A stretch of 64,000 nucleotides of DNA from IMG/VR virus record IMGVR_UViG_3300020595_000024. The stretch is one strand, 5' to 3'. Source of the stretch: an uncultured virus (IMG/VR IMGVR_UViG_3300020595_000024) (Duplodnaviria; Heunggongvirae; Uroviricota; Caudoviricetes; Crassvirales). Below, piece after piece: positions 11,934 to 50,500 of the stretch. How positions within the stretch are numbered: the stretch's first letter is position 1; the number at the start of each line of letters is the position of its first letter. Under the pieces are notes generated by a model. The model was not told the origin of the DNA and searched no databases. It worked only from the letters and a program-made list of their open reading frames with translations. Both the position numbers and the translations under genes were made by a program.

Positions 11934-12083
11934 TTAATTCCAATCAAACTCCAGGGTAACGATAAATAAAAAAACACTTAATGTATTATATGGGTAACTA
12001 TCATCGGCTTTAATATACTCGGTTCCTACTGTGAACCTATCATGTGGCCAATGAAATAATATTTGTACTCTCCAATCATTCAT
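11934..12083 (-). CDS. Small hypothetical protein (49 aa, MNDWRVQILFHWPHDRF...)
   Basis: Read by hand (below the ORF-track cutoff); AT-rich leader. Confidence 0.55.
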   Translation of the reverse strand: MNDWRVQILFHWPHDRFTVGTEYIKADDSYPYNTLSVFLFIVTLEFDWN

Positions 12084-12109
12084 AATAATTATTTTATAGT
12101 AGTTAAAAG

Positions 12110-12375
12110 ATATAAGATTCCCTAAGAAGTTACTACACCTCTTAGATCTAAGTCACCTTAAACCTATTTTAACTCCAGTTATGTAAAGGGTCCGTACTAT
12201 TTAAACCTATCTGGGAGGATTCACCCGCCTTTATTCCCAGTACCCTTATGTTTTACTGAAGTCCTTTTCGAATTTACCGGGGACAACTCTAATCTTTATT
12301 TAAGATCTACAACCCGATGTCTAAGATCCTCCCATCTGGTTCGGATCTGTAATGAGACGGATATCTCATAATTCT
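12110..12375 (-). ncRNA. Candidate structured non-coding RNA or long 5' leader
   Basis: No substantial ORF; starts just after a consensus promoter; several long-range complementary segments. Confidence 0.45.
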
Positions 12376-12379
12376 TTTA

Positions 12380-12411
12380 CAAATATACTCTATTTAATTC
12401 TATACTCCAAA
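12380..12411 (-). promoter_or_regulatory. Consensus Bacteroidota promoter TTTG-N20-TATATTTG
   Basis: Exact match to both consensus elements. Confidence 0.7.
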
Positions 12412-12428
12412 CTTTGCTCTAATACAAA

Positions 12429-12560
12429 CTACGTGTTGAACTTAATCGGTATTCTTTTCACTTTATCGACTGTTCTGTCATCTATGTGAAATAATTGACT
12501 ATAATAGTCTTCTGTTGGGTCAACCTCCGCTTCATATATAATATCTTTCCAGTCTTTCAT
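12429..12560 (-). CDS. Small hypothetical protein (43 aa, MKDWKDIIYEAEVDP...)
   Basis: ATGA overlap with the stop of 12557..12763. Confidence 0.5.
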   Translation of the reverse strand: MKDWKDIIYEAEVDPTEDYYSQLFHIDDRTVDKVKRIPIKFNT

Positions 12561-12763
12561 ATCGCTTCTAGTACATCCTTGAATTCCTCAAGGCTTTCTA
12601 TAAATCCATTGTGTATAACTCCTTGTGGTGTTATAATAACAAATAGTCCTCTCATTAAGTGATCCACTGTTGTGTTAAGTCCAAATCCTGCACTCTTCTT
12701 CCAGATTTCATTCTCTGGATCATATATGAATCCTTTTTCTGCTAATATATCTTTATAACTCAT
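12557..12763 (-). CDS. Hypothetical protein (68 aa)
   Basis: ORF with an A-rich leader. Confidence 0.65.
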   Translation of the reverse strand: MSYKDILAEKGFIYDPENEIWKKSAGFGLNTTVDHLMRGLFVIITPQGVIHNGFIESLEEFKDVLEAI

Positions 12764-12783
12764 TTTTTTCTATATATTAATAG

Positions 12784-13513: not shown

Positions 13514-13972
13514 ATGAATAAATATAATGCACCACATTTCGTAAGTAATCCTAAAACAGGAGAAGTTGTAACTACTTTCGAAGGTAAAGATTCTAAGACA
13601 TACGGTAGAGTACGTCTTGACCAAGTTACAACACAGATTCGCAACAATATGGAGAGTGATGTTCGTAGAACAGCTTTCATTACGCTACAAGAATCTGTAT
13701 TAGAGCGTAGAATGAAGGATGGTTCTCTTGTAGAGTTTGGGCCTTATATCGTTGCAGGTAAAGAGGGTAAGCTTCTTGTTCAAGAGTCTACGACTCCATT
13801 TTATGAGGGTCAAGAGCCTAAAACTGCAGGTAAAGACGGAGACATCATTACACACGGTGGTCAGCCAGTGTATCGTAATACTATCTTTAGTATTGACGAC
13901 AATGCTTCTGATGAGTTATTAGTATCTGATAGCGTTAATGCTACAGTGTCTGCATCAGCAGGTGTAGAGTAA
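13514..13972 (+). CDS. First early gene; hypothetical beta-rich protein (possibly OB-fold/ssDNA-binding)
   Basis: Clear ORF opening the + strand block; the function is a guess from its beta-rich pattern and acidic tail. Confidence 0.7.
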   Translation: MNKYNAPHFVSNPKTGEVVTTFEGKDSKTYGRVRLDQVTTQIRNNMESDVRRTAFITLQESVLERRMKDGSLVEFGPYIVAGKEGKLLVQESTTPFYEGQEPKTAGKDGDIITHGGQPVYRNTIFSIDDNASDELLVSDSVNATVSASAGVE

Positions 13973-14097
13973 TCTACAATTTAGGTTGTGAGTGTTGTTT
14001 GTTGCGTTGATTCGTGTAAGACAATACTCACACCGCCTAAATCAAGCTTAAATGCTTTAAACAAAATTAGGTAGTATTATTACTATCGCTAAATCAG

Positions 14098-14231
14098 TAT
14101 TTAGAGAATGCTCAAGGCTACTTTGATAGACCTTGTGTAAAGACACTTTATGCTAAATAAAATCCCTTTGGGTGCACATAAACAATGCTCACACTTACTT
14201 TGATAAGTCGTGATGTAAATAAATTATGTGC
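14098..14231 (+). ncRNA. Two tandem copies of a structured motif AATGCTCA-stem-ACTTTGAT-stem-TGTAAA
   Basis: Loop sequences are conserved while the stems differ between copies yet remain complementary. Confidence 0.5.
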
Positions 14232-14319
14232 TGTATAATGTCAGCGTTGCTTGGTCACAAATCCAAGATGAGAAAGACAGAGTGTACAAAATTAATACTA
14301 ATCCTTTAAACTCAAAACA

Positions 14320-14553
14320 ATGGATAATGTAACAATTAAATTGGAGAATTACCGCAGTGCTATAAATATCAGCGGTACTTTGTCTGTAGACCAAAGTGTT
14401 GATGTAATTGATATGCTCGTAAGAGATATGTTCAAGAACATTCAATCAGATACTACAAAAAACTATGTTCGTCAACAGCTAATCAGCGGTATAAATCAAG
14501 CCTTTGATTACAGCATATTGACGAATGATTCAAAGCCTTTAGTTAGGCTATAA
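14320..14553 (+). CDS. Hypothetical early protein (77 aa)
   Basis: ORF with A-rich leader TTAAACTCAAAACAATG. Confidence 0.65.
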   Translation: MDNVTIKLENYRSAINISGTLSVDQSVDVIDMLVRDMFKNIQSDTTKNYVRQQLISGINQAFDYSILTNDSKPLVRL

Positions 14554-14666: not shown

Positions 14667-14849
14667 ATGAGAAAGCACTTAAAGCAGTACATATTATTTA
14701 GTATTTGCCTGTTGTTTGTAACAGCAGGCTTAATACTGATACTATCAGTACAACAAGCAGATTGGAAATTCAGTACATTTATCTTCAGTAAACTCATAGG
14801 CCTTGCCTCTTTGTTTATTGGTAAATTCGTATGGAATTTCATTGACTAA
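14667..14849 (+). CDS. Small two-TM membrane protein (60 aa)
   Basis: Two hydrophobic segments. Confidence 0.55.
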   Translation: MRKHLKQYILFSICLLFVTAGLILILSVQQADWKFSTFIFSKLIGLASLFIGKFVWNFID

Positions 14850-15146
14850 CAATACAGGGCTAACGCCCTGTTTATTGTATATAAAAGGATATAAATCTAA
14901 AAAGATTTATTCATCCTATTTGCTTTCAGCAAACCATTAGTGTAGAGACTATGTAGAGCTATATACGGCAGTGCGTAGTAGTACGGCTGTGTGTGGAGCT
15001 TAACGCCAGATCTAATAAGTCTGAAACATTGCGGGGACGTGCAGATAGCATAATTTCCCTTCTTTTTTATTCTTAAATACTCAGTACCAATAAGTACGAA
15101 ACCCATCAGGGAACGTGCAAGTAATAATCATTTAAAACAAAATATA

Positions 15147-15233
15147 ATGGCAAAAGTAAAATCATTTTTATCAAAAGCATACAAATTACTGCAAGAACTA
15201 GGTTCAGGTGCAGGACATGCAATGCGTAACTAA
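15147..15233 (+). CDS. 28-aa peptide MAKVKSFLSKAYKLLQELGSGAGHAMRN
   Basis: Read by hand; A-rich leader, amphipathic pattern, tight spacing to the next gene. Confidence 0.55.
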   Translation: MAKVKSFLSKAYKLLQELGSGAGHAMRN

Positions 15234-15259
15234 TTTATTAATCAATTAAAACTAAACCA

Positions 15260-15982
15260 ATGAAAAAACTAATCATTTTATCAGTAATGGCAGCTTTATC
15301 TTTCTCTCCATGTGAGGGACAGACAGAAGACCAATCAGTAAACTCACAACAAATCAAATCATTTTACGTAACAGCACCAGGTGGTCTATCTCTTAGAGAA
15401 TACAACAACCTTAATAGCACTAAACTAGCTATCATGCCTTACGGAACTAAGATTGACGTTGTTGCGTTAGAATTAAATAACACCATGAACATTAAAGGTG
15501 TTAAAGGTGGTATGCACAAAGTACTATACAATAACAAAGTAGGTTTCGCATTTAGCGGATACTTATCAGAGTTATTCCCACCAGAGAACGGGTCAAGTGC
15601 GAAAGTGTACATCGAAGACCTAAAGTTTAGTCACCCTAATGCAAGTTTTCTATCATGTACCGGTGGTACAGCTAGTCAGCCTACATTAACAGAGACTATA
15701 CTTATTCCTACTAAACAATGGAATGAGGCTTTCCTTATTGCACAGAAGTTATACAACATACCTTCTGAGTTTGGAATGCCGAACCCGAGAGGAAGAAACG
15801 CTCAAACAATACAGAGTAAGTATGCTAGTGATAGTGTAATGAACAGCTTAAGAGTTATGAGACATCAAGACTCTCTTGTTGAGATAGTATACTTCTATGC
15901 AAATGCAACATTTGGGAAGTGTATAATAATAAAAGAACATGGAACTATGATGCAAATCGAATTCTATGAAGTAATTAAGTAA
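15260..15982 (+). CDS. Secreted bacterial SH3 (SH3b)-domain protein (240 aa)
   Basis: Signal peptide MKKLIILSVMAALSF; SH3b-like YVTAPGGLSLRE...MPYGTKIDV...GFAFSGYLS. Confidence 0.75.
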   Translation: MKKLIILSVMAALSFSPCEGQTEDQSVNSQQIKSFYVTAPGGLSLREYNNLNSTKLAIMPYGTKIDVVALELNNTMNIKGVKGGMHKVLYNNKVGFAFSGYLSELFPPENGSSAKVYIEDLKFSHPNASFLSCTGGTASQPTLTETILIPTKQWNEAFLIAQKLYNIPSEFGMPNPRGRNAQTIQSKYASDSVMNSLRVMRHQDSLVEIVYFYANATFGKCIIIKEHGTMMQIEFYEVIK

Positions 15983-16050: not shown

Positions 16051-16311
16051 ATGAATACATCAAAATCAGTACTAGTATTTGTATCATTGTATATATTACA
16101 GTGGGCAATGCTAACAGGAATTGTAACATTTGCATCAGGAATAGCATTTAAACAAGCTATGGTTCTGAACCCAGTAGGAGTTTATATGATTCTATTAGGG
16201 TGGGTTGTACCTGTAATAGTAGCATTAGATTACAAGGAGTGGGCCGATAAGAAAGCCTACCAAGCACGAGTAGACCGAGAGTGGGCAAGAACCCTAGAAT
16301 CTTGGAAGTAA
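16051..16311 (+). CDS. Small membrane protein (86 aa)
   Basis: Two hydrophobic segments; typical leader. Confidence 0.65.
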   Translation: MNTSKSVLVFVSLYILQWAMLTGIVTFASGIAFKQAMVLNPVGVYMILLGWVVPVIVALDYKEWADKKAYQARVDREWARTLESWK

Positions 16312-16331
16312 TAACCTTTAATAAATAAACC

Positions 16332-16562
16332 ATGAGTTACAAGACAGAAATGACTAAGACCGAACTGACTATGCACATCAAAACTCTTATGGATAGACTA
16401 GAGGGTGCTAACAGTGTAATATTATTGTTACACAAACAAGTGTCTAGGCTAAAAGCTAATGGAGACGCAAAGCAGATAGAGATTAACAAGATGAGACAAG
16501 CTAAGTGGGAAACCAGAAGGCTTGCTGAAGACTTGCCACCTCAAGACTGCAGTACATTATAA
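16332..16562 (+). CDS. Hypothetical coiled-coil protein (76 aa)
   Basis: ORF with an A-rich leader. Confidence 0.6.
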   Translation: MSYKTEMTKTELTMHIKTLMDRLEGANSVILLLHKQVSRLKANGDAKQIEINKMRQAKWETRRLAEDLPPQDCSTL

Positions 16563-16571
16563 TAATACCAA

Positions 16572-17664
16572 GTTCCTAGCCCTTTGTGGTACACTGTAAA
16601 TAGGACCGACAGCCGATGAGTGTGAGGGCTGTCAAAATATTCAATACACTCGTTAACCTTTTAGGCTACGGGCGATAACCCATGATAACGCGGGTGTATT
16701 GAAAATCTTAAGTTATTTCCTCACATACGAACCCATTGGTTCTAGAGGGAGTAACTACAAGGCTTATCATACCAGGGCGGATTAGCTGATGCTTTAGTGG
16801 AATGATAAGTCATAAATTACTAGTCAATAAAAGCAGTAGTGGCTACCTGCGGATAAATAATGATAAATTGAAGGTGGAATAGTTAGACTATTCGTAAGCC
16901 CGAGTGTATGTAAATGCATACAATAGATTTATAATCGTAGCCTTGACTAGTACCTTATTATTATTATACTTGCATGGAATGAACATGACGATGCTCAGAC
17001 TTGGTGTTTAGTTAACAGCCACAAAACACGCATATCCTACAAGGTAGGAAGTGCAGACTTTTAAGGTCGGTGCAAGTATAATATATTATAACAGCATTAC
17101 GAGTGACAGAGTAATTAACTGTCGGCACGGTGGAAGTCCGATCCTGTAATTATGGTAGATGCATGCTTTAATGCAGGAAAATAGCTGTTTATTATACTCC
17201 CCATTCGATGAACAATAATGTTCTAGGGGAGAATTGTACTTTTGTGAATTAACAGAATGCCTGGAACCCATCGTGGTGTAAAGGTCGTAAGGTTGGGATA
17301 CCCTACAAAAGTATATTATTAACGAATGGGAATATGATTAAGCTTGTTGCCCATCCAAGCGTATGAAAATATAATATAGGTACCTCTAGCACCTACGGGT
17401 AGTGAGGAGGGCGGTTGAACTGATAAACTAGACACCGATGAGTCTAACTATCTTACCTTAAGCAGGGAATAAGCTGATTTGTGAGACAGAATTGACCCAC
17501 TGTACGCAGAGTGCAATATGAAAGTTTGGTCGACCATGTTGTGAATGATTTGCTAGTTTAATATAAACTAGGCCCGTCAACCGGGGAAACGGTAATGTAA
17601 GTGGCACGATTACTTACAAGGCAGGATTAATTGCGGGGCTCATTAGTGGGCTCCCTTCCTGTTT
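16572..17664 (+). ncRNA. Candidate array of structured non-coding RNA modules (or one large ncRNA)
   Basis: About 1.1 kb without a credible ORF; ten or more consecutive stem-closed domains with G-U pairs on the + strand. Confidence 0.6.
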
Positions 17665-17698
17665 TATAAAATTAATATTAACCAATTAAACTTAAAGA

Positions 17699-17923
17699 AT
17701 GGAATTTACAATAACAAGATTTACAGAAGGAGAAGAAGTAGAAAGCTTAAGAATGGAAGATCTAACACTAGTTGACGCTGTAGATGAGCTACTATTCTAT
17801 CAAGTAATATCAAACAAATTTACAGAGAACAAGTTGTTCACTTACCTAAGAGGAATCAAGGTAGGATCAACAGTTAAACAGGGTAAGTCCTATCAACAAA
17901 TAAGAATCACTAAAACTAAATAA
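17699..17923 (+). CDS. Hypothetical protein (74 aa)
   Basis: ORF with the recurrent ATTAACCAATTAAAC leader. Confidence 0.65.
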   Translation: MEFTITRFTEGEEVESLRMEDLTLVDAVDELLFYQVISNKFTENKLFTYLRGIKVGSTVKQGKSYQQIRITKTK

Positions 17924-18141: not shown

Positions 18142-18294
18142 ATGGAGCAAGAAGTATTTGATTACTTAGACTTTTTAAGAGAGTCAGGAGTAATAAACAT
18201 GATGGGTGCAACACCATACATCATGGATGAATTCGATACGGACAAATTAGAGGCCCGTAGATTGTTAACCAAGTGGATGAAATCTAAAAGATAA
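18142..18294 (+). CDS. Small phage protein (50 aa, MEQEVFDYLDFLRESGVINMMGA...)
   Basis: Read by hand; fills the gap exactly and its stop overlaps the next ATG; LRESGxxNM resembles a common small phage protein family. Confidence 0.7.
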   Translation: MEQEVFDYLDFLRESGVINMMGATPYIMDEFDTDKLEARRLLTKWMKSKR

Positions 18295-18836
18295 TGTTAG
18301 ATACGATAAGAGAGGTAGTTGAAACTGTGACCATGCTTGATATAAGTAAGGTCACAAGGAAAAGAGAATACATACTCGCAAGAGCGTTGTATTTCTACCA
18401 TGCCAGAAGGGTAACAGGAAGAAGTCTAGAGGCTATAGGCCGAACAATGCACGGGAAAGGACATGATACAGTAATACATGCGTTAGCTAAATTTGACGAG
18501 TATTACCAAGGTTATAAGTTCTTTAGAGATAGTCACTATCAAGTGTGCAAGATACTAGAAGACATAGATAAGACTGTTGTTTTAGAAGAAGACGAATCAT
18601 TAGTTGGTGTAATAAAAGACCAGAACAGGATTCTTCTTATGAAGAACGCAGAACTTAAAGAACAGGTAGCAGAGCTATCTGAAATAAAACAACATGAAAG
18701 AGAAAATGACATAATGACAATGCTTGAAGGTGTACCTGAAGAGCGTGTTCAGTCATTTATTGATAACCAATTGCGAACATTTATACTGTTAGAGAAATCT
18801 AGAGTAGTTCAGCAGTACAAGAAAGACCAGTTATGA
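18294..18836 (+). CDS. DnaA C-terminal (domain IV)-like HTH protein with a coiled coil
   Basis: RKREYILARALYFYHARRVTGRSLEAIGRTMHGKGHDTVIHAL parallels the DnaA domain IV pattern R..Q.AMYL..ELT..SL.EIG..FGGRDHTTV.HA. Confidence 0.7.
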   Translation: MLDTIREVVETVTMLDISKVTRKREYILARALYFYHARRVTGRSLEAIGRTMHGKGHDTVIHALAKFDEYYQGYKFFRDSHYQVCKILEDIDKTVVLEEDESLVGVIKDQNRILLMKNAELKEQVAELSEIKQHERENDIMTMLEGVPEERVQSFIDNQLRTFILLEKSRVVQQYKKDQL

Positions 18837-19060
18837 ACATAAGAAAAGCGAGTGAAGTCTTAGAAGAGCAAATGTATTCTGATACACGTCTAGCAATAGA
18901 GATACAGGATGCAGCTAATGATAAAAGATGCAAAGCGTACGTAAACATAGAGCTAGTTACACCAGAACAAGTAATTAAGCTAAAAGAACTTGGCTATAGT
19001 TTATATAATACAGGTAGTAGGTTAGAGATATCCTGGGAATACGCACAAGATGTCGATTAA
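18833..19060 (+). CDS. Hypothetical protein (75 aa)
   Basis: Overlaps both neighbours. Confidence 0.65.
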   Translation: MNIRKASEVLEEQMYSDTRLAIEIQDAANDKRCKAYVNIELVTPEQVIKLKELGYSLYNTGSRLEISWEYAQDVD

Positions 19061-19886
19061 GAGACAAGAAACTAAGACATTGATTACGAAACCCAACAAT
19101 AATAGTGCTAATGCAATTGCACCTAACATTATTTATGGTTGCTTCGGAGGATGTGTCGGGACGTACTGTTATATGTCTAGATTTAATGGTAAAAGAGTAT
19201 TTGTTAACACAAATGTTGATGATATAGTATCATCAGTATTTAAGTGGGCTGATACTTATAAGAAAGAACCGGATCAACAGGATCCAGTTTACAAAATGGT
19301 AGATGTAGCTTGTAATACAGATTTAGTTCTGATGCAAAAGCATTTACCAATGCCGTTAGAACAGTACCTAAAGATGTATGATGACCACAGTGAGGTCAAT
19401 ACAACTATGGCTACTAAATATCCAGGTCTTCTAAAGTTAGATGTTAATCATTTTGACAAGAAACCAAGGGTACGAGTTAGCTTGATGCCGCAATCTTATT
19501 CTGATATACTAGAGCCAAAAATGCAAAGCATAGAGTCTAGGATCAGAGATATAGACAGACTTAAAAAATTAGGATGGGAAGTACATATAAACTACTCACC
19601 TGTGATTATTTACAAGAACTTTAGACAAGAATATTATGATTTGTTTGAACAAGTAAAGAATGTAGCAGGAGTTAACAAATGTGAAGTTATATTTTTAACT
19701 AATCATCCCATGCAAATGAAAAGAGTAAATGGATTAGCCTCAGAAATGATGGGCAAATCAAATCAAGTAAAGAATGCTGGTGGAGTAATGAGATATCCAC
19801 TAGATTATAAAAGAAAAGCAATTAATATATTCAAAGAAGAGTATGCTAAGTTCTTTAATCTCGAAACAATTAGATATATATTTTAA
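19050..19886 (+). CDS. Spore photoproduct lyase (SplB)-like radical SAM protein
   Basis: GCFGGCVGTYCYM Cys cluster; ACNTD, ATKY, RVRVSLMP, LEP...SIESRI, GWEVHINYSPVI and RY segments follow the SplB family pattern. Confidence 0.75.
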   Translation: MSIKRQETKTLITKPNNNSANAIAPNIIYGCFGGCVGTYCYMSRFNGKRVFVNTNVDDIVSSVFKWADTYKKEPDQQDPVYKMVDVACNTDLVLMQKHLPMPLEQYLKMYDDHSEVNTTMATKYPGLLKLDVNHFDKKPRVRVSLMPQSYSDILEPKMQSIESRIRDIDRLKKLGWEVHINYSPVIIYKNFRQEYYDLFEQVKNVAGVNKCEVIFLTNHPMQMKRVNGLASEMMGKSNQVKNAGGVMRYPLDYKRKAINIFKEEYAKFFNLETIRYIF

Positions 19887-43400: not shown

Positions 43401-44509
43401 GTCTGAACTTCTTTAAGAGTTTCAAAGATATCATTTCTATTCTTGTATGCTCTAATTAATTCAGGAGTAATATTTGTTGTAGGGTCGTCCAATGCATTTT
43501 GTAGACTAGCATCTAATGCAGCAAGTCTTTGCTCTCCCCACTGAACAAACTTTAGTATTGTAATAAGTTTGTCTGTGTCATTAAGTTTTTCTAAATCTTT
43601 TGGATCAACTTCAGTTTCTTTCATCAATGTGTGTAATCCTGTAGAGTAATTAATTACACCGGATCTAATCTCATTGTTTCTTTTTTGTCTGTCTCTGAAG
43701 TTTTTAGGCTCGTCAAGTTTGTGTGCGTTAAAAATCCTTGTAGTAATTTGTTCATACAAAGAGTCCAAAGAAGATATTTCTTTTTCCAGCTCATTCATTT
43801 CTTCGCTTTTATTTGCAAATCTTTCTTCTTGCTGGTAGTCTGATATAGTTCTGTCGCTAATGTCTTTAGATACCTGATCAGATATAAGTTCTTTTGTAAG
43901 TGCAAGTACTTCATCTCTGTTTAGACCAAAGGTTCTGTTCATGAAATCTAAGAACCACTCTTTAAATGCATTCCATTTACTTTTGTCCATTTCAGATTCA
44001 AATATTTCAGCACCGGTGTTTCCTATAGCAGTAGTTACAACCTCCTTAATAAACTGTTCACTGTCTTCTTTGTACTCAGGATAGTTTTCTTTAACCTGAT
44101 TAAAGACTGCAGTTCCTCTTAGTTGATCGTAAGCTCTTTGCACTCTAGCATTTTTGTGTCCACCAGGAAGAGAGTCAACGAATATATGGCCAAACTCATG
44201 AATGGCTGTAGACTTGAATATCCTGTCAGGATTAATCAATATCACAGGCTTTCCAGCTTTAATTGTCTTTGGGTCGGAAGCAGCTAGTACTCTCGAAGAT
44301 TCTACTTCATAATCAAGCACAACTTCTACATCCATCTTCTTCTGAAGATGCTTTACCTTCTGTTGAAAATTATACAGAGCTTCTCTTTTATTAGTTCCTC
44401 TTTGTTCTTGTGCAACATATTTATTTGCAATTGCCTTATCAGCAGCAAGAGTGTTAATTAACTCTTGCTCGCTAAGGTCTTTTCCTTTATAATTATAAGT
44501 ACAACTCAT
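40490..44509 (-). CDS. Large virion ejection protein with an N-terminal zincin-like motif (1339 aa)
   Basis: AIHEFGH (HExxH); follows the virion RNAP, as in the crAss-like large-gene triad. Confidence 0.75.
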   Translation of the reverse strand: MSCTYNYKGKDLSEQELINTLAADKAIANKYVAQEQRGTNKREALYNFQQKVKHLQKKMDVEVVLDYEVESSRVLAASDPKTIKAGKPVILINPDRIFKSTAIHEFGHIFVDSLPGGHKNARVQRAYDQLRGTAVFNQVKENYPEYKEDSEQFIKEVVTTAIGNTGAEIFESEMDKSKWNAFKEWFLDFMNRTFGLNRDEVLALTKELISDQVSKDISDRTISDYQQEERFANKSEEMNELEKEISSLDSLYEQITTRIFNAHKLDEPKNFRDRQKRNNEIRSGVINYSTGLHTLMKETEVDPKDLEKLNDTDKLITILKFVQWGEQRLAALDASLQNALDDPTTNITPELIRAYKNRNDIFETLKEVQTIAEDVSKDGFSEDYLLVHKELVDSGIADMNGLKTKIDAKILNVERAMFAEIMVEGSNQHLVEWRNKFGRQYDTIKPNEAKIPWVEKKMRENAEAIKKQAYDTYLKQAEESPGDIGNFMASLVTEKNLSSGEIQVASKMFDRADMETADYSKNRANQMKAHYDKFVEYHGGEINREDMYKKFVEQTEDGSYFITKYQVEYLKELQALERDANDRDLSEEKYGKVEVAANNIYFVEGNEAPQLLKGPNGEKVKVKGMFATYMVGNAPYQLPVATLIARQQMKDWKKVNQKVIQTTKGTRTVPADKWLNKEYDKLTEEEFKQLEIFKGYIKEADELSQGEESLIERGASQEWLRLPGVTRTTMSRVIAGDMKNAAIDKVRDAFQKKEDEYDLGGTAAADRNETIKVLADINNKEMHKIPLRYRSKLPQGEQSLDIHTILLLNLEAAKNHKEKKQLEMQILVMADVMTNRLNPQTKSGKSAIHSFSDIKDIRLFKSKSELPNDVAKLLDMAENRLYGIKSKDAGEVAGVNVQKATSTVLKYAGSVSLIGNFMNSIVNATTGTVNNLIEAFGGETYTMKDWKKAGVKYWSDTKGLMDDMGSNVATSRTNLFNNLFSTLGSSQALDHGFEDNNRVKALFSMHSLRPIAQGGEHMMQSKVMYAVMNNIKVLDKDGNFLNAEGKIVKDRKDAVSLDEVIEFHKEGSSDIRAKMPDWVGGTTFSPSASHGDILLETRNLVKKKIIDLHGNYDPEIQSAAQREWWGKLLFFLKKWMESTTLRRYRGLQSALKSSEELTEADRFYSEDLKSYQEGYYVTAVRFIKNSIMPAMKSFNIELVKSDFKNMTTHEKANAKRFLAEMGMMVTILLAYAAMGGMDDDPDDDTLLARFYLRRELAELSFYSNPAEALKIIKSPSAAINFTDKITKLMGQSFSPTEDYKVGVNKGRNKLWVKFLKALPIGSQSEKDFKASLRFLQVMD

Positions 44510-47500
44510 TATCCGTTACATGTTATGTCGTTATCATTTGCTATTTCATCTATGTTATTTGAAATGGCATCTATATTTCCTTTTGGAATATACTGAATTC
44601 CTGTGTTTAAATCTACGCTTTCTATAAATACTTCTCCACTTTCATTGTTAATAGCGTCATAAAGATTATTTACATTGTTTATGTTCCAAGCTACAGACTG
44701 TGGCATACCTTCTCTTTTTCCTGTATCGTTGTTATAGAATGCACTAAACTTTGTAGAACCAGTAAAGAATGTTGATGGTATTTCTCCAGTTCTTTTTAAG
44801 TAGTCTCTATAAGCTTTAACATCTTCTTTGTTTATGATTGTTTCTCCTTTTGATAGCTCTACCTCTCTACCACTAGACGTATTGTCCATTGTAAGGGCAG
44901 CAGGTATAAGTTGAGGATTAGCCATTGCTTTTTCAAGAATACCATTAATCATTTTATTCATGTTAGCTGGTACGTTGTTGCTAGGTATCTGAGAATTCTC
45001 AGTCTTAGTTCCGTAATTCCACTCCACTACGTTACCTTTTCTTGATCTTTTACCTAGCTTATGTGTTCTAACATATAAAGGTCTGTAGACTGCAGTGTCT
45101 TTATTATTTTTGTCCTTAACAGTAACTAGTTCGTTACCTACGTATTTGTAGAATGCTTCATTCATCAATGGTTCACTAGTCTCTTCGTCAAATACAGGGA
45201 ATCCTTGGTCATCTTTTACTTCATCTATTATAGTAACAAATTCAGGGTAGGTTTTAAGCCCATCAATGTTTTGTCCTGTAGACAAAGCATCGTTAGTCAT
45301 GTCAGTCTTATAATGAAATGCTGTTGTTTTAGGAATTCCACCAGGTAACGCTTCAGCTACTCCAAAGCTAACTCTAGGAACAACCTTTGCATTTTCCCAG
45401 TTGTGTCTAAAGTATTGTTCTCTAAAGTTAGAGTCCATATCAGCATCTCTTGTCTGAAAAGCTATTTTCTTAAAGTCTTTACCAACACCTTCTGCTTTTA
45501 ATATTTCATGAGGTATGTGTGCAAAGAACTGACCAAGACCACTTTTAAATCCTGTACCAGAGTACGCGTATCTAACTAGGTTTCTTGCTAATGTTTTTGT
45601 TTCAGGATTTCTATATAGTTCATTCCATGATCTGTAGATTTTATTTTTATACACAGCAGGTTTGTTAGCTGAATCTATTGTCATAAAATTATATTGACCA
45701 TCTTTGTTTACGATAATTTCTTTTATTAAGAAGTTTTTGCTGTAAGGCTCTCCCTTCTTTTTCATATTCATAATCTGATTGCCTAGATCCGTAAACAATC
45801 CAGGAATATTTGTAGTGTTTACAGAAAGCAATTCTGTTCCAGACATTGCATAAGAGTAATAAGAACTATCTAAATCTTTTGCTAAGTCTATACTTGTAAT
45901 TCTTTCTCCTCTACCCATCCTGTTAGAGATTGAGTTAAATGTATTCTCAAGAGCCCTAGTTGCAGATATAGACAAAGCACTGTTGTTTAGAACTTCTCCA
46001 ACAAAGTCAACAGCATTATCATGGTAAGTACCATTCATTGTGCCATCAAACTTTGCCTCGTATCCTTGTATTTTTCCACTAGCTAGTACTTGTTCTTTTC
46101 TGTTTTGGATAATCAATCTTTCTGCGAATGATGTTCCACCTCCTTTTGTGTCAGACTTAGCTGCAATAACAGATGCTGAAAAAGCTTTTGAATAAGACAT
46201 AAGCCCTTCGAAAACATTTAACACCATATCTTGAGCTGCGGCATTTTGTCCTGTTCTTTTTGCAGTAATTTGACGCTCTAAGAAATCTTTACTTTTTAAG
46301 TCTGAGGCTTTAGAATCATTTAAACTTGCTTCAAATTTCTTAGCACCGTACTTCTGCCTAACTACTTCAAAGGCATCTAAAGTTTTACCACTCTTGTCTC
46401 TAACTCTTTCGGAAGTAATACCTTCCATTTTTTCCATTTCTTTTACTAAGTCTATAAGAATTGGTTGTCCCATAAATCTATTAACCCACTCAACACTAAC
46501 ACCTGCTCTTAAAAGCATAAATGTCATGTTAGCTGTAACAGAATTATGATTACCTCTAGATACATAAGGGTCTTTTGCGATATCAACGTACGCGTTAAGG
46601 AACGCAGACAATGAATCTGCAATAGATCTAGTGCCGTCCTTATCCATTATTTCATCAAACTTAGTAACTCCTTCTTCGCTTATGTGTCCAATACCTATAT
46701 AAGTATCTAATGTTATGTTTAGACTCTGGTTTAATACGTGGTCAACTAACATGTTTGCTGTTTGTCCCACACCAGCTTTACCTGATACATAATCAAATTT
46801 GATATCTATCTGTGATGTAGGAGAAAAGATCTGTAAATCATCATAAGTTGGAGGAGGAAACAATCCGTTAATGTCATCCTTAAGATAGTCTGAATCAATA
46901 GATCGCATCATGTCGTCATAAGTAGCAGGGCTAGTAAGAACTGACCAGTATAATTCTACAAGTCTATTCTGTATAGCAGCCTTAGAAGATTGATTAGGAC
47001 TAATTTTTTGCACCACTCCATTTCTTAATTCAAGATTGTGCATCATTACAAACATCTTATCAATATCAAAGTCACTACCAGTTTTTCCTGGTATAGCATC
47101 GTATCCTATAATAGCATCTCCCATTGAATCAGGAAGTATTCCTACAATTTCAACAGCATCATTAGATGACATCCCTTGGTTTGGTATACGATAAGTAATC
47201 ATCTCTAAAGCAGAAGGGTCTATCATGGCCATTAATTCTTCAGAAGTCATCTTGTCGAAATTAATTTTGCCATCTAAGCCTTTTAGCATTGTCTTCAAAG
47301 CACTGTAAGGTATGAACACTTGTCCAGGCTTAACAACACCATTCTCTTTTCTTGGTGGTTTAAGTCCTCTAATAGGATCATAATTTTTAGAAACTATTTT
47401 TATACCAGACTTATCGGTAACATCTCTATCTAATCCAAAGTTACTAACCTGAATAAAAGATGCACCGTTAGTTTTTATTTTAGTCATTTCTTTGTTCATC

Positions 47501-50500
47501 ATAGACATGAACATAGATTGTACTTGTTGTCTTACTTGAGGTATGTGGTCAAGAGGAGTTTCTTTTTCAAGTGCAGAAATAATATTCTCTCCACCCTCTT
47601 TTCCTCTGAACTCCTCTATAAGAGCTGAATATATTCTTTCTGGATTTGTTATTTTTCCATTAACAATTCCAAACTCTTTTTCTAAATTTGCTCTACCTAT
47701 ATCAGATAGTTTAGAAACAGTATCGTGAATTTCTTGAAGAACCTGCCCACCAGTCATCTTTTCCTTACCATTAAAAGTATAAACCTCTTCGTTAAGAGCT
47801 AGATTAGATAATATGTTCTTTTGTATTTGAGATCCTACTGCAGCATCTTTAGTTAGCTTTGTAGGTAAGTCTTGTTGTAGTTTCCAACCACGGTTTGTAA
47901 GTATTGTTGGGTTAAGCTCAAACTCTCCAAGCATTTCAGTTGTTCCTTCTTTGTTTATTGTAGTAGGAGCCATTGCTCCAACCTTTACACCATCAGCAGT
48001 TACAACTTCACCAATTTCATCTTTAGGTTCTAGTGTTTTCCCATCCTTGTCCTTAGTCATCTTATCAAGAAGCTTTTCCATAGGTAGCCCTTTTACCATA
48101 CTAGGTATGATGACAGCCTGAGAGTACTTAAGATATACGGGACGTCCATCGTTGATTTCAAAATACACACCTTTAAGTGGTTGTGCAGCAAGTTTAAGTT
48201 CTCTTTTAGTTAAAGTCTTTCCTGCGATCATGTTAGCGTACGCTTTGTCATGAAGAGGAGTCCATTTACCTAACTTCTCTTGTAAGAACTTCCACCTGTT
48301 AGGGGTAATCCACCCCTGTGCATCTGTAGTGTTAACACTTTTGTATGCCTCAGCAATCTTTGGGTCATCTACAGAGTCAATAATTTCTTGCAAATATTCT
48401 GAAGCAACTTCAACATTAGATATTGTAGCTTGCTTAAAATATAAGTTGTCTGAATTTTTTAATCTTAATTGAAGTCCATCACTATATGTAGCAGGAATTC
48501 TTTTTATCATGTCTGGCATGGTCTTGTAGTATGCTGGATCTCCAGAAAACATCTTACCATATTCTATAGTAGATATCAATCCATTTACAGCGTGATCACC
48601 AGCCATTGCTGTTAAAGGTTCGCTGCTTTGAGATTCATATCTTGCAAGAATATCTTTATCCAAATTACTTACAGACTCTATTGCTTTGCGAGAATCCAAC
48701 ATTCTTTGATAGAGAACTATTTTTATATACTCACGTAAAGCCTTTTTTTGTTCAGCAGTTAATCCTCCAACACTTGTAGATAATGGTCTACCATCTTCTT
48801 TGTACAATGCATTCCTTAAACCAAATACGTCTCCAGCTTCTGTTAACATTTTACTGTCATGAGATAGGTTAGGAAACAATTGTGACCTAGTTCCATTCAT
48901 ATTACCAGTATGATAGTGTTGAATTTTTTTGCTGTCGTCAAGTGTATCTATTTCATTCCAAACCTCAATCATTCTGTTGTACTCGTCTTCAAAGTAGTCA
49001 ACAAATACATCTAATGTTTTGTTAGGTATTCTTAATCCTTTTTCAGTCTGAATTATTCCAGCATCAAAGAAAGGTAGTCCACCTATTTCAGTCCTTCTAG
49101 ACTTATCTGCAGGTACAATTGTAGGCATGTATGATTCATTACCTATTTTTCCTCCAAGCATCTTAACAATGCTCTCATTGATAGCGTCAGGCTTTGTTTG
49201 CTTCTTGTTGTCAACACCGTCAGACTTGCCTTTACTTTTAAAAGATGCGGCAAGAACTAAGCTTAACTTGTCTAGTCTCTCTGCAGAAACTCTTTCTCTA
49301 TCTTTTTTCTTTACGTCCTTACCAGTGGCAAGAAGATAAGATATCCATTGAGAGTTTTTGTTGTATGTTTGTGTAGAAAGTTTTTCTAATTCTGAAGGGT
49401 CATTCTTCCATTGGTTAACTTTATTGGAAAGGTAAGAAGGTGAAGAGAATCCCCATCCCATTTTACCTCCGTTAAGAACTACTGTGTTCTCAGCAAAGTT
49501 TACCATCCCAAGTGCCATAGACTTACTAAGTGCTCTTAAAGTCTTTTGGTCACTAAATGGATTTCTTTTTTCAGTACTAGTGCCAAAACCACCTGGAACT
49601 AACAAGTCATCTATTGCAAAACCAATTGCCTGAGATAGCTCATTAAGTACATCGTAAGGTTCTTTGTTTTTTGCTGTGTTTAAGTTTACGTAATCAGTAA
49701 TGTCTTGTGGAGTAACAGTAGTCCCAAGTCTTTTTAATATTTCTGCAATAGCATCTTCTCTATCGTCTAATACATTGTCTCTTTCTGATCCAGGTTCTGC
49801 ATTCTTGTATGCCTCACCAAACAATCTGTTAGCCTGAGTAATCTCATCTTTAAGTTCATTTAATCCTATAGCAGCTTGCTTATTAGCGTTTCCACCAACA
49901 GACCTCCATCTTTTTCCAAACTCCCATGACCAATCATTTCTTAGTTTATAGTCTCTACTACCAACTACAGAAGCATTAATAACTTTGTATTTCTTTCCGT
50001 TAACTTCTGTAATTAAAAAGTTTAGTTTTGTTTTAGAAAATGCTTGAACAAATTCAGTCTTCTTAGATTCACTTGCATCTTTAAGTTTTTCAATCACATC
50101 TACAACCCATGGCTTGAGATCTTCTAGCTCTTCCATCTTTTTTATCATCTGAGAAAAAACATCGGATACGTTGTCACCATGGCCAATACTAACTATGTCA
50201 GATAGTGCTGGCTCAAGTGTGCTCCATACATCTTCGTAATCAGCAAACATCTCCATCTTAAGAAAGTTTCCTGTTTTCTTAGTGAGCTTGCCATCTACGT
50301 ATTCAAGAGCTAGTATTTGCGATAAGAATAGTTTTGTGTTTGTTGTCGCTGCATCTTTTGAGTTAGATTCAAAAGAGTCTTTACTAAAGTTTGGATCTTT
50401 GCCATCTGGCGTGTTGTCTACATCCTCTTCATTTGCAGCTAAGCTTTTGTTAGCCCTTAGTTTAAATCCATAAGATTGGATTTTGTCAGACATCTCAGAA

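Follow-up and report, generated by a model that had tools for sequence, protein, structure and literature searches.

What does a crAss-like phage keep in a run of 1136 nt of its early region that holds no recognizable gene? In the window, by which we mean the whole stretch of DNA that was analysed (64,000 nt), positions 16563-17698 form the longest run, counting both strands, without an ORF of at least 70 aa, the runner-up being 846 nt; the original prediction, which called it the largest ORF-free stretch, was right. It contains no + strand ORF of at least 45 aa; at 30 aa or more there are just two GTG frames (35 and 32 aa), and the three + frames hold 96 stop codons and a maximal open run of 43 codons. 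An antisense frame of 61 aa (17086-17271) splits the stretch if the cut-off is set at 50 aa. Could a recoded gene be hidden here? With TAG read as Q, TGA as W or TAA as Q, the longest + frames reach 83, 56 and 125 codons, respectively; these require 2, 1 and 5 read-through codons and span the borders of the modules described below, and were accordingly rejected. Neither the standard nor a recoded genetic code thus yields a credible ORF in the stretch, and none of the hidden small ORFs that the prediction had allowed for was convincing. Among the neighbouring ORFs scanned, none hints at an RNA-related function.

If the stretch (hereafter the array) is non-coding, does it belong to a known class of RNA? 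ARAGORN found no tRNA or tmRNA gene in the 64 kb, and Rfam gave no match to the window at gathering scores and chance-level matches only (E 0.6-5.9) in a permissive scan; in the region 16300-17900, Rfam at E up to 10 showed no tRNA, GOLLD, ROOL, self-cleaving ribozyme or riboswitch. There is no tandem repeat within the array, where direct repeats reach no more than 15-20 nt (75-87% identity). The modules therefore match no Rfam family, and the earlier reading that canonical tRNA, tmRNA, CRISPR and intron hallmarks are lacking stands. The array has no blastn match among GenBank phages, and literature searches on crAss-like phages and on phage structured or tRNA-like RNAs turned up no account of such an array.

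Folding recovered all of the closing stems that had been listed from inspection, from 16608-16633 through 17235-17315, and together with the comparisons below it gives the following features.

16568-16605, + strand: M0, part of a leader; stem of 16574-16578 with 16601-16605.
16608-16633, + strand: M1, a hairpin (7 bp) seen by folding; its 12-nt loop, GATGAGYGTGAG, is conserved.
16640-16703, + strand: M2, an optional cassette; a 13-14-bp closing stem enclosing two mini-hairpins, folding z -3.87.
16711-16756, + strand: M3, a member of the small family S, folding z -5.22.
16761-16811, + strand: M4, an optional cassette with a 10-bp closing stem, seen by folding.
16818-16952, + strand: M5, a 135-nt multibranch module.
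16953-16967, and also 17084, 17190 and 17314, + strand: TATTAT linker motif between modules.
16962-17083, + strand: M6, 122 nt; a perfect 13-bp closing stem and four inner hairpins.
17090-17189, + strand: M7, a conserved RNA of 75-115 nt across relatives.
17197-17231, + strand: M8, the second family S member; inner hairpin GAACA-ATAA-TGTTC.
17235-17315, + strand: M9, 81 nt; a 12-bp closing stem.
17320-17479, + strand: T1/T2, the less well defined 5' part of the terminal domain; folding z weak.
17480-17625, + strand: T3, a widespread phage RNA family; core GTCAACCGGGNANACGGTA between a 5' hairpin and a 3' hairpin that covaries.
17620-17668, + strand: T4, a closing hairpin and T-rich tail; inner stem 17635-17654 with G-U pairs, terminator-like.

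The modules are 26-147 nt long and none has a cloverleaf architecture; the linkers between them are A/T-rich. Folding energy, which had been proposed as a check, fails to separate the array from its coding flanks: the first half (16572-17086) has a z of -4.69 and the second (17087-17664) of -1.54, with 8 of 100 shuffles equally stable, against -2.79 and -3.27 for two coding controls, and sliding 120-nt windows average -1.09 inside the array (n=12) versus -1.38 outside (n=43; p=0.82). Per-module values run from -1.0 to -5.2, with similar values on the minus strand, the modules having been chosen by their stems in the first place. Because the coding controls fold about as well, the evidence for RNA modules is comparative and not energetic.

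This comparative evidence comes from related loci, most of them in metagenomes, and M7 illustrates it. Its 5' part consists of P1, the junction ATTACGAG and P2, which is capped by the invariant loop TAATTAA; a hairpin of 3 bp follows, its TGGAAGT loop resembling a T-loop, then P3, which varies in length and in its short forms is capped by GCAA or GTAA, and finally GAAAATAG and the second strand of P1. In an alignment of 12 distinct sequences (A2), pairing extends to 96% of cells, and compensatory changes are found at 9 of 19 pairs; none of 500 shuffles attains the score, and slid controls are 21-53% paired. A model built on M7 (R1) scores 90-112 bits at 13 array loci, and a search with the M7 core found the module at 14 of 16 loci within arrays that differ in cassette content and order. 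A scan of genome contigs with the same core gave nine loci. Two are weak matches within long ORFs and just one is real: L109, a contig of 1.2 kb from a Bacteroidetes MAG bin, which is too short for a host to be named. We also considered a pseudoknot between ATTAC of the junction and a GTAAT loop, but three of its pairs are invariant and the other two vary by breaking only, leaving it unsupported.

T3 behaves similarly. The T3 model (R2) matches 17530-17625 with 76.2 bits, and a scan of viral contigs returned 23 loci, every one with extended conservation; in an alignment of 22 sequences (A8), the 3' hairpin shows compensatory changes at 7 of its 8 pairs. T3 is present in at least 20 more viral contigs; of these, at least one is probably not crAss-like. 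Two T3 relatives had no blastn match among GenBank phages, and in 151 sampled Bacteroidetes genomes the T3 model found one weak match only (29.9 bits). The preceding T1/T2 segment is 82-87% conserved in L094, L095, L097, L102 and L103 and partly replaced in L038, and a 17-mer of the terminal domain, searched in viral contigs, found three array-bearing contigs and otherwise chance matches only. The original prediction had the terminal domain tied by a long-range GGTTGA/TCAACC pair. This pairing is unsupported: TCAACC sits in a locally folded conserved core that is kept in arrays without the GGTTGA segment. T4 is predicted to be the transcription terminator of the unit, and probably is; the sister arrays L088 and L100 likewise terminate in a strong hairpin on the + strand with T8 after it.

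Among the other large modules, compensatory changes were seen at 5 pairs in M5 (A5, 5 sequences), at 3 pairs in M6 (A4, 6 sequences) and at 1 pair in M9 (A6, 4 sequences), most of the module alignments being shallow (4-12 sequences) and assembled through conserved cores, which makes conservation look higher than it is. For M0, M1 and family S, covariation was read straight from the sequences. M0 is the 3' remnant of a conserved leader of roughly 150 nt that starts nearly every related array (it is conserved in the metagenome loci L088, L089, L092, L094, L095, L098, L100 and L103), and its stem changes from TCCTA/TAGGA to TGACA/TGTCA in L098. The M1 stem changes from GACAGCC/GGCTGTC to GACAACC/GGTTGTC; a scan with a 16-mer of the M1 loop gave 34 loci, of which L142 is the sole new real array, the others being GC-rich chance matches. 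Family S modules share a layout of closing stem, 6-7-nt 5' bulge, inner hairpin (GAACC-CATT-GGTTC in M3) and then TA, and M3 shows a compensatory change from T-A to C-G when compared with L038. The prediction that non-Watson-Crick positions would be G-U on the + strand (A-C on the minus strand) was borne out, the helix cells of four module alignments containing 64 G-U and 2 A-C, although this count is biased since the structures were derived on the + strand. The helices of the array are under RNA-level selection on the + strand, and M5, M6, M7 and T3 make up at least four new covariation-supported RNA families, all absent from Rfam.

Are these modules parts of one structure or units in their own right? 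Across 14 related metagenome arrays, insertions, deletions and rearrangements fall at exact module borders, and the order of modules varies. Compared with L038 the indels are module-exact: M2 and M4 are each missing as whole units there and in L089, as they are in L094, and M8 is missing from L038 as well. Further variants come from the assembled contigs of four RNA libraries, which cover the array and flanking genes alike and may include DNA. In one of these contigs M8 is swapped for 84 other letters; elsewhere 164 nt are inserted at 17194/17195, 17318 is joined to 16818, and loose ends occur at 16637, 16641 and 16815. In X18 the contig depth was 480-897 over the array and 214-360 over the flanks, and in X17 it was 111 and 23-93, contig depth being a quantity that cannot rank genes.

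Conservation of the RNA also exceeds that of the neighbouring proteins. In an RNA-library variant M6 and M7 together have 2 differences in 237 nt versus 4-8% in the flanking genes, and in general modules retain 84-99% identity at loci where the flanking ORFs share 27-50% identity or are not detectable at all. The same cassettes occur between unrelated genes in other phages. Between the same two phages, divergence varies from cassette to cassette, and this points to mosaic exchange. The cassettes are autonomous units that are lost, gained, replaced and reordered at exact borders. The array is accessory and not core in this phage clade, T3 being present in 2 of 30 relatives' whole records and M7 being absent from the 12-kb loci of the other relatives.

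The original prediction had left open whether the region gives many small RNAs or a single large multidomain one. The first half of this alternative is favored, in that covariation, whole-module gain and loss and changes of order all speak for separate + strand RNA units. A large RNA in the manner of GOLLD or ROOL, with the modules as sub-domains and a variable periphery, would account for the constant leader and 3' domain that frame the array, for the single terminator per array and for the total size of about 1.1 kb, which is near that of large ornate phage RNAs and of the roughly 800-nt ICP1 RNA as described in PMC7567579. It could also draw on a 24-nt stretch of M5 (16871-16894) that is 79% complementary to the terminal domain (17436-17459), and on the self-complementary TTAA-type cores in several loops. 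We nevertheless regard it as unlikely. Module order is not kept: M9, 98.8% identical in L103, precedes M5 there, M5 likewise comes after M9 in one RNA-library contig, and M9 adjoins M7 in L093. Family S and the module N2 lie after T3 in L100, L095 and L098, the arrays range from a 213-nt gap (L101) to the 1136 nt of the window and longer still in L103, and in L101 and L109 M7 stands alone beside a mini tRNA-like RNA. Moreover, no long-range helix is conserved across the related arrays, and the GOLLD and ROOL models of Rfam are unmatched.

Precise exchange could also be a property of DNA. The linkers are not only A/T-rich but repeat a motif: TATTAT occurs 6 times in the array versus 1.0 expected, none of 2000 dinucleotide shuffles attaining 6, and the L038 deletion junction falls within one such motif. 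(TTAAC and TGGAA, with 5 occurrences each versus about 1.7 expected, are not significant, their p of about 0.03 being uncorrected over all 5-mers; neither GTGGAAT nor the sequence of the M1 loop shows enrichment within the window.) Inverted repeats bounding each module, A/T-rich linkers, precise insertion and deletion, the similar folding z of the minus strand and a gene for a DnaA-type HTH protein 600 nt downstream might suggest MITEs, attC-type recombination hairpins or a hairpin-built replication origin. Such DNA-level elements are highly improbable. No module has a second copy in the remaining 63 kb of the window (best chance match 15 nt, E 0.057), no target-site duplication was seen at the empty sites of L038, and the neighbouring ORFs scanned include no integrase or transposase. 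Integron attC sites have GTTRRRY and RYYYAAC boxes at the ends of the folded site, whereas in the array GTTRRRY occurs just at 16882, 17414 and 17442 and never at a module end. Finally, it is not the termini alone that are conserved or covary but also internal hairpins, GNRA-type caps and junctions, and the stem mismatches are G-T and not A-C, with the bias noted above.

A third possibility is that the array acts in cis, as an untranslated platform whose hairpins serve RNase cleavage, stability or attenuation and so tune the neighbouring early mRNAs. The model here is phage T7, in which RNase III sites lie between the early genes. The array is on the same strand as the flanking early genes and directly adjoins both; no promoter of its own stands out, whether of the sigma-70 type or another kind; its closing stems of 10-14 bp would be suitable; and other short gaps in the same operon are also strongly folded (13970-14322, z -3.93; 14845-15262, z -3.33). 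A cis role is nonetheless quite unlikely, given that the same cassettes lie between unrelated genes in other phages, that a terminator precedes the next gene, that the sequences and conserved loops far exceed the needs of a cleavage site, and that sister arrays include tRNA and tRNA-like cassettes.

These last cassettes deserve closer attention. Rfam scans of 12 sister loci, of positions 1600-2350 of L103 and of 12 T3 loci returned tRNAs, one partial group I intron match (L123) and chance matches, and at E up to 0.1 no known ribozyme or riboswitch family was found in the 12 sister loci. In the L095 array ARAGORN calls a tRNA (1245-1339; 36.7 bits) whose anticodon-arm region contains a 29-nt insert, and L103 holds a near-tRNA (2245-2323) that scores 28.2 bits against a cut-off of 29 and has a CAU loop but lacks a D arm. 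Modules with a canonical T arm occur in L088, L103, L101 and L109; apart from the L095 and L103 examples, the T-arm modules of sister arrays give no tRNA score. Related phages have tRNA genes in the same early region at 7 of 40 loci, and T3 relatives have them within 2 kb at 11 of 21 loci according to ARAGORN, to which Rfam adds L119 and L125. Since sister arrays carry both tRNA and tRNA look-alikes, the idea that array RNAs are tRNA mimics gains indirect support. The window's own array contains neither, so the analogy with a tRNA operon rests on the relatives. Might the array then be a row of decaying tRNA genes, that is, pseudogenes without present function? The tRNA genes of related phages in this region and the mixture of tRNA and degenerate tRNA-like modules in sister arrays would fit, but conservation is higher in the modules than in the flanking genes, the module helices covary, and no module in the window scores as a tRNA at E up to 10. 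We find this explanation scarcely credible.

Taking these observations together, we consider it probable that the array is a tRNA-less form of the stable-RNA islands of phages, a + strand unit of exchangeable small-RNA cassettes. It would form a + strand transcription unit in which a conserved leader is followed by separately folded cassettes and then by a conserved, terminator-bearing 3' domain, and a single precursor may be transcribed jointly with the upstream early genes. Host RNases would cleave this RNA either at the closing stems or within the TATTAT-type linkers, which are A/U-rich, freeing stable stem-closed RNAs that would each act individually in trans. The linkers could in addition supply microhomology for cassette exchange. 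As to what the freed RNAs do, the most plausible role, and one we propose by inference alone, would be that of mimics or decoys that engage host proteins with an affinity for structured RNA, tRNA-like or otherwise. Such a role would account for the rapid turnover of cassettes in a hypervariable early region.

A more specific proposal, which we put forward as doubtful but worth stating, is that the array is the RNA counterpart of an anti-defence island: a shuffled library of small RNAs whose cassettes are swapped through TATTAT-type linkers as host defences change. Each RNA would then mimic or trap a different host factor, for instance tRNA-targeting defence nucleases, RNA-modifying enzymes or RNA-sensing immune proteins. 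In a bolder variant, the cassettes with self-complementary loop cores (TAATTA in M7, GTTAAC in M2 and M6) might form RNA-only multimers.

That phage tRNA clusters include extra, unexplained stable RNAs is an old observation, and the array presents the non-tRNA part of such clusters standing alone, in a relative of crAssphage that is abundant in the sea. The combination of cassette exchange with conservation above that of the flanking proteins is a pattern typical of host-phage conflict loci. What could previously be called only "structured RNA near tRNAs" becomes a set of defined units suited to single synthesis, probing and expression. If the cassettes prove to be RNA decoys they would add a new layer to phage counter-defence; if they are merely processing or stability elements, they are a modest addition to the catalogues of phage RNAs.

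How does the array of exchangeable cassettes compare with known systems? CRISPR arrays and ToxI-type repeats consist of repeated units of one sequence, which the array does not contain. The viral structured-RNA catalogue (PMC10690425) holds thousands of unnamed covarying motifs in IMG/VR contigs, tRNA-like ones included. Three array-bearing IMG/VR contigs are absent from those of its supplementary files that were searched, and single modules may have been listed there earlier. The GOLLD and ROOL large ornate RNAs, as presented in PMC7567579 (citing Harris and Breaker 2018) and in a cryo-EM preprint (10.1101/2024.12.08.627333), resemble the array in being large gene-free structured RNA loci of phages or prophages, often near tRNAs. 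They differ in that their Rfam models are unmatched and that the array modules permute and occur singly, which makes a single fixed fold unlikely. The lytic phage ICP1 has an abundant noncoding RNA of about 800 nt, encoded where gp139 and gp140 are separated by roughly 1 kb without an ORF (PMC7567579); like the window, ICP1 has no tRNA genes by that account, but the abundance and transcript length of its RNA were measured, and the likeness concerns gap and size.

Closer parallels are found among RNAs associated with tRNA clusters. Species I and II RNAs of phage T4 are processed from tRNA precursors. They lie within the tRNA regions of T4, T2L, RB1 and RB3 (PMC2330249). Like the array modules, they are non-tRNA structured RNAs in clusters whose content varies between related phages; they stand in a one-strand row with tRNA genes, and here tRNAs accompany sister arrays and many T3 relatives. 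In contrast to the T4 case, the window's array is without tRNA, has about ten modules and not two, and belongs to a crAss-like phage; the comparison concerns gene organization and kind of RNA. Phage tRNA arrays themselves differ in kind of RNA, the modules described here failing both ARAGORN and the Rfam tRNA model and being non-cloverleaf. In organization, however, the two are alike: back-to-back stem-closed RNA genes on one strand with short A/T-rich spacers between them, exact gain and loss of whole units, and one terminator.

The window, from marine samples, is a piece of a crAss-like phage genome. The large terminase it encodes shares 44-46% identity with its counterparts in uncultured crAss-like phages and Bacteroides crAss phages, and PHROGs names were assigned for portal, terminase, a GroEL-type chaperonin, helicases, primase and ribonucleotide reductase. 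Genes lie on the plus strand between about 13000 and about 40500, and on the minus strand to either side. The array sits within the plus-strand block, amid small hypervariable ORFs. Its parts, and two genes downstream, are:

16563-17698, + strand: the whole array
16568-17315, + strand: successive stem-closed modules (cassettes), M0 (part of the leader) to M9
17320-17479, + strand: T1/T2, start of the terminal 3' domain (T)
17480-17625, + strand: T3
17620-17668, + strand: T4, closing hairpin and probable terminator
18294-18836: DnaA C-terminal helix-turn-helix protein, 180 aa, 600 nt downstream of the array (Pfam E 5.6e-11)
19050-19886: SPL-like radical-SAM protein, 278 aa, downstream of the array, well conserved

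The SPL-like protein shows unusually high identity (63-100%) across 76 viral loci, and the small ORFs around it are all replaced in relatives. Two more short ORF-free gaps of this plus-strand operon have unusually strong folds, matched by none of 100 shuffles: 13970-14322 (z -3.93), with a hairpin of about 22 bp near 13979-14042, and 14845-15262 (z -3.33), with a two-way terminator-like hairpin at 14854-14871. The second-longest stretch of the window without an ORF of at least 70 aa, 11938-12783 (846 nt), is at the minus-to-plus gene switch and may be a site of divergent promoters or an origin. The minus-strand block holds adjacent ORFs of 2186 aa (44509-51069) and 2181 aa (51082-57627) and others of 1339 and 1082 aa; the sole PHROG match among these very large ORFs is one weak match to a virion structural protein.

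The original prediction described the array as the largest ORF-free stretch, tiled by stem-closed domains, and this anatomy is real. At an ORF cut-off of at least 70 aa on either strand, 16563-17698 is the longest such stretch in the window; it has no + strand ORF of at least 45 aa, its only + strand frames of at least 30 aa being GTG frames of 35 and 32 aa, and 96 stop codons fall in the three + frames. A hidden recoded gene was also sought by reading TAG, TGA or TAA as sense, and no convincing gene emerged. Folding recovered each of the predicted closing stems at the same coordinates. The predicted absence of canonical tRNA or tmRNA held up, with no ARAGORN match over 64 kb; against Rfam 15 nothing reached gathering scores, and a permissive scan of 16300-17900 gave chance matches only.

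Are these structures under selection as RNA? Helices covary, and they do so in M0, M1, the small family S, M5, M6, M7, M9 and T3. In an alignment of 12 distinct M7 sequences (A2), helix cells are 96% paired and 9 of 19 pairs show changes on both sides; the covariation score was reached by 0 of 500 shuffles, and slid controls were 21-53% paired. Helix P3 of M7 varies in length: the shortest form is 3 bp with a GCAA or GTAA cap, the longest an arm of about 45 nt. Invariant features are the junctions, the TAATTAA loop of P2 and a 3-bp hairpin whose loop is T-loop-like; this is partly ascertainment, part of the core having been the search pattern. Compensatory pairs number five in M5 (5 sequences), three in M6 (6 sequences) and one in M9 (4 sequences). 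M3 and M8 both belong to family S, in which the closing stem and the inner hairpin covary; in M0 and M1 it is the stems that covary. The predicted + strand wobble signature is also there: helix cells of four alignments, with structures derived on the + strand, hold 64 G-U versus 2 A-C. At its 3' end the window's array has a + strand hairpin that resembles a terminator and runs into a T-rich tail; in the arrays at loci L088 and L100 the last element is a strong + strand hairpin followed by T8. Comparative evidence of this kind, with the locus comparisons below, settles in our judgment the reality of the array. The alternative that the modules are DNA-level elements is contradicted by the wobble asymmetry and the internal covariation, and also by a search of the rest of the window, which found no second copy of any module.

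Judged by folding against shuffles, the yardstick of the original prediction, the thermodynamic evidence is equivocal: the first half of the array folds well (z -4.69) and the second half does not (z -1.54), while two coding controls of the same size gave -2.79 and -3.27. Nor is the array set apart from its surroundings by folding energy (sliding 120-nt windows: array mean z -1.09, n=12, versus flanks -1.38, n=43; p=0.82). Per-module z values run from -1.0 to -5.2, on units picked by their stems, and are similar on the minus strand.

Related loci were retrieved via the SPL-like protein. The array is present in only 4 of these 76 viral loci, three of which trace to two contigs that match the window exactly; in the fourth, L038, the protein is only 72% identical. 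Shared parts of the two arrays are 87-100% identical, and the indels between them take out exactly M2, M4 and M8+M9. The few substitutions that fall in stems are either compensatory, as in M3 where a C-G pair replaces T-A, or, read on the + strand, U-G/U-A switches. The array locus was also found in 20 marine sequencing runs, including 6 RNA libraries of three studies. Contig variants there have an additional 164 nt at 17194/17195, M8 swapped for 84 nt, 17318 fused to 16818, or loose ends at 16637, 16641 and 16815, and every one of these breakpoints is at a module border. A metagenome scan with an M7 20-mer gave 16 loci, 14 real and two GC-rich chance matches. Cassette content and order vary among the 14, as in these examples (N2, N3 and N6 are modules of sister arrays):

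L094: the window's array without M2 and M4
L092: leader, short M7, new module, T
L103: leader, tRNA-like, N2, N3, M9, M5, N6, near-tRNA, M6, M7, T
L093: M5 ... M9, M7
L100: leader, M7, T3, S, N2, terminator
L101 and L109: M7 and a 57-nt mini tRNA-like RNA, in a gap of about 210 nt
L099, oriented 2089-2238 (stored strand -, about 44-197): two M7-family RNAs in direct tandem

The second M7 copy of L099 has its T-loop-like loop altered to TGCAAGT and a different P3. Because cassette content and order differ among loci, a fixed multidomain fold is ruled out and the modules are shown, at the level of sequence comparison, to be autonomous units; the permutations likewise contradict the alternative of one large RNA. 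Identity between the window and L103 is unequal (M9 98.8%, M5 94%, leader 92%, M6+M7 84%), which points to cassettes with separate histories. The linker motif TATTAT occurs six times versus 1.0 expected (0 of 2000 shuffles reach six) and marks the L038 deletion junction; it may act in recombination, in RNA cleavage, or in both.

In an RNA-library variant, M6+M7 differs at 2 of 237 positions and the flanking genes at 4-8%. Small flanking ORFs in L088, L102 and L103 are just 27-50% identical to the window's, and no protein common to the window was detectable within the few kb of L091, L095, L098-L101 and L109. The modules are 84-99% identical in loci with such dissimilar or undetectable flanking proteins. 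This conservation above the flanking genes contradicts a decaying tRNA array, and the presence of the same cassettes beside unrelated genes contradicts a cis-acting processing platform. M7 is absent from the 12-kb loci of other relatives, and T3 from within 6 kb of the anchor gene in 82 sources scanned, relatives' loci included; among the relatives' whole records, 2 of 30 carry T3, and 151 sampled genomes of the phylum Bacteroidota have essentially none (a single 29.9-bit match). The array unit is thus accessory.

Several sister loci carry tRNAs or tRNA look-alikes. L095 1245-1340 is a 96-nt tRNA (36.7 bits, also called by ARAGORN) read as Phe (AAA); it has a 29-nt insert in place of the expected 17-nt anticodon arm and may be intron-bearing or non-canonical. 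L103 2245-2323 scores 28.2 bits versus a tRNA cut-off of 29; its anticodon loop reads CAU, and the D arm is missing. L088, L103, L101 and L109 have modules whose T arms are of textbook form and whose terminal stems are 7 bp long. The 57-nt mini tRNA-like RNA (L101, oriented 2604-2660; L109, 961-1017) follows M7; its terminal stem is 7 bp long and its T arm canonical (GGGAG-TTCGACT-CTCCC), and it lacks an anticodon arm.

The strongest link of the array to tRNA clusters is T3. Its 19-nt core was found in 23 viral-contig loci, all with the flanking hairpins; across 22 sequences, 7 of the 8 pairs in the 3' hairpin show compensatory change, and the family was not found in Rfam. ARAGORN placed tRNA genes within 2 kb of T3 in 11 of 21 loci, several of them near-duplicates of each other; beyond that count, Rfam tRNAs start a few bases past the T3 hairpin in L119 and L125. 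A crAss-like terminase is present in 4 of 18 T3-bearing records and in 3 of 3 near-complete ones; an 88%-complete 219-kb T3-bearing record has none. On another T3-bearing phage contig, L123, a partial group I intron match (721-909; 42 bits, cut-off 50) is just 5' of a tRNA-Arg. In L113, L119, L125 and L135 an upstream hairpin loop of the GATCTTTCTGGTA type, about 110 nt 5' of the T3 core, is complementary to CAGAAAGATC, which adjoins the core on its 5' side and covaries with the loop (CGTTTG/CAAACG in L135). In these longer T3 relatives CTGGT could instead pair with ACCAG of the terminator loop. The covariation together with this alternative pairing suggests a pseudoknot or switch in these relatives.

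The search for a promoter belonging to the array itself found none, and we infer from this that the array is co-transcribed with upstream early genes. Host RNases would cut in the A/U-rich linkers or closing stems, and the stem-closed, stable products would act in trans, probably imitating host RNAs that are tRNA-like or otherwise structured, or serving as decoys for them. The proposed decoy role fits the turnover of cassettes, the presence of tRNA look-alikes and the setting among hypervariable early genes.

In the papers searched, no account turned up of an RNA array with shuffled cassettes in crAss-like phages. More than 10,000 viral RNA motifs have been catalogued (PMC10690425); a search of part of its supplements did not turn up the contigs of the array. 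The nearest published likeness is to RNA species I and II of the T4-type tRNA region (PMC2330249), followed by the GOLLD and ROOL RNAs and the ICP1 RNA, an abundant transcript of about 800 nt from a 1-kb ORF-less gap (PMC7567579). The array is a real feature that adds several new covariation-supported RNA families and shows clear cassette behaviour. Sequence evidence shows it as an accessory set of + strand-encoded, autonomous structured-RNA cassettes, framed by a leader and T3/terminator and exchanged between phages, similar in kind to the RNAs that phage tRNA clusters encode besides tRNAs.
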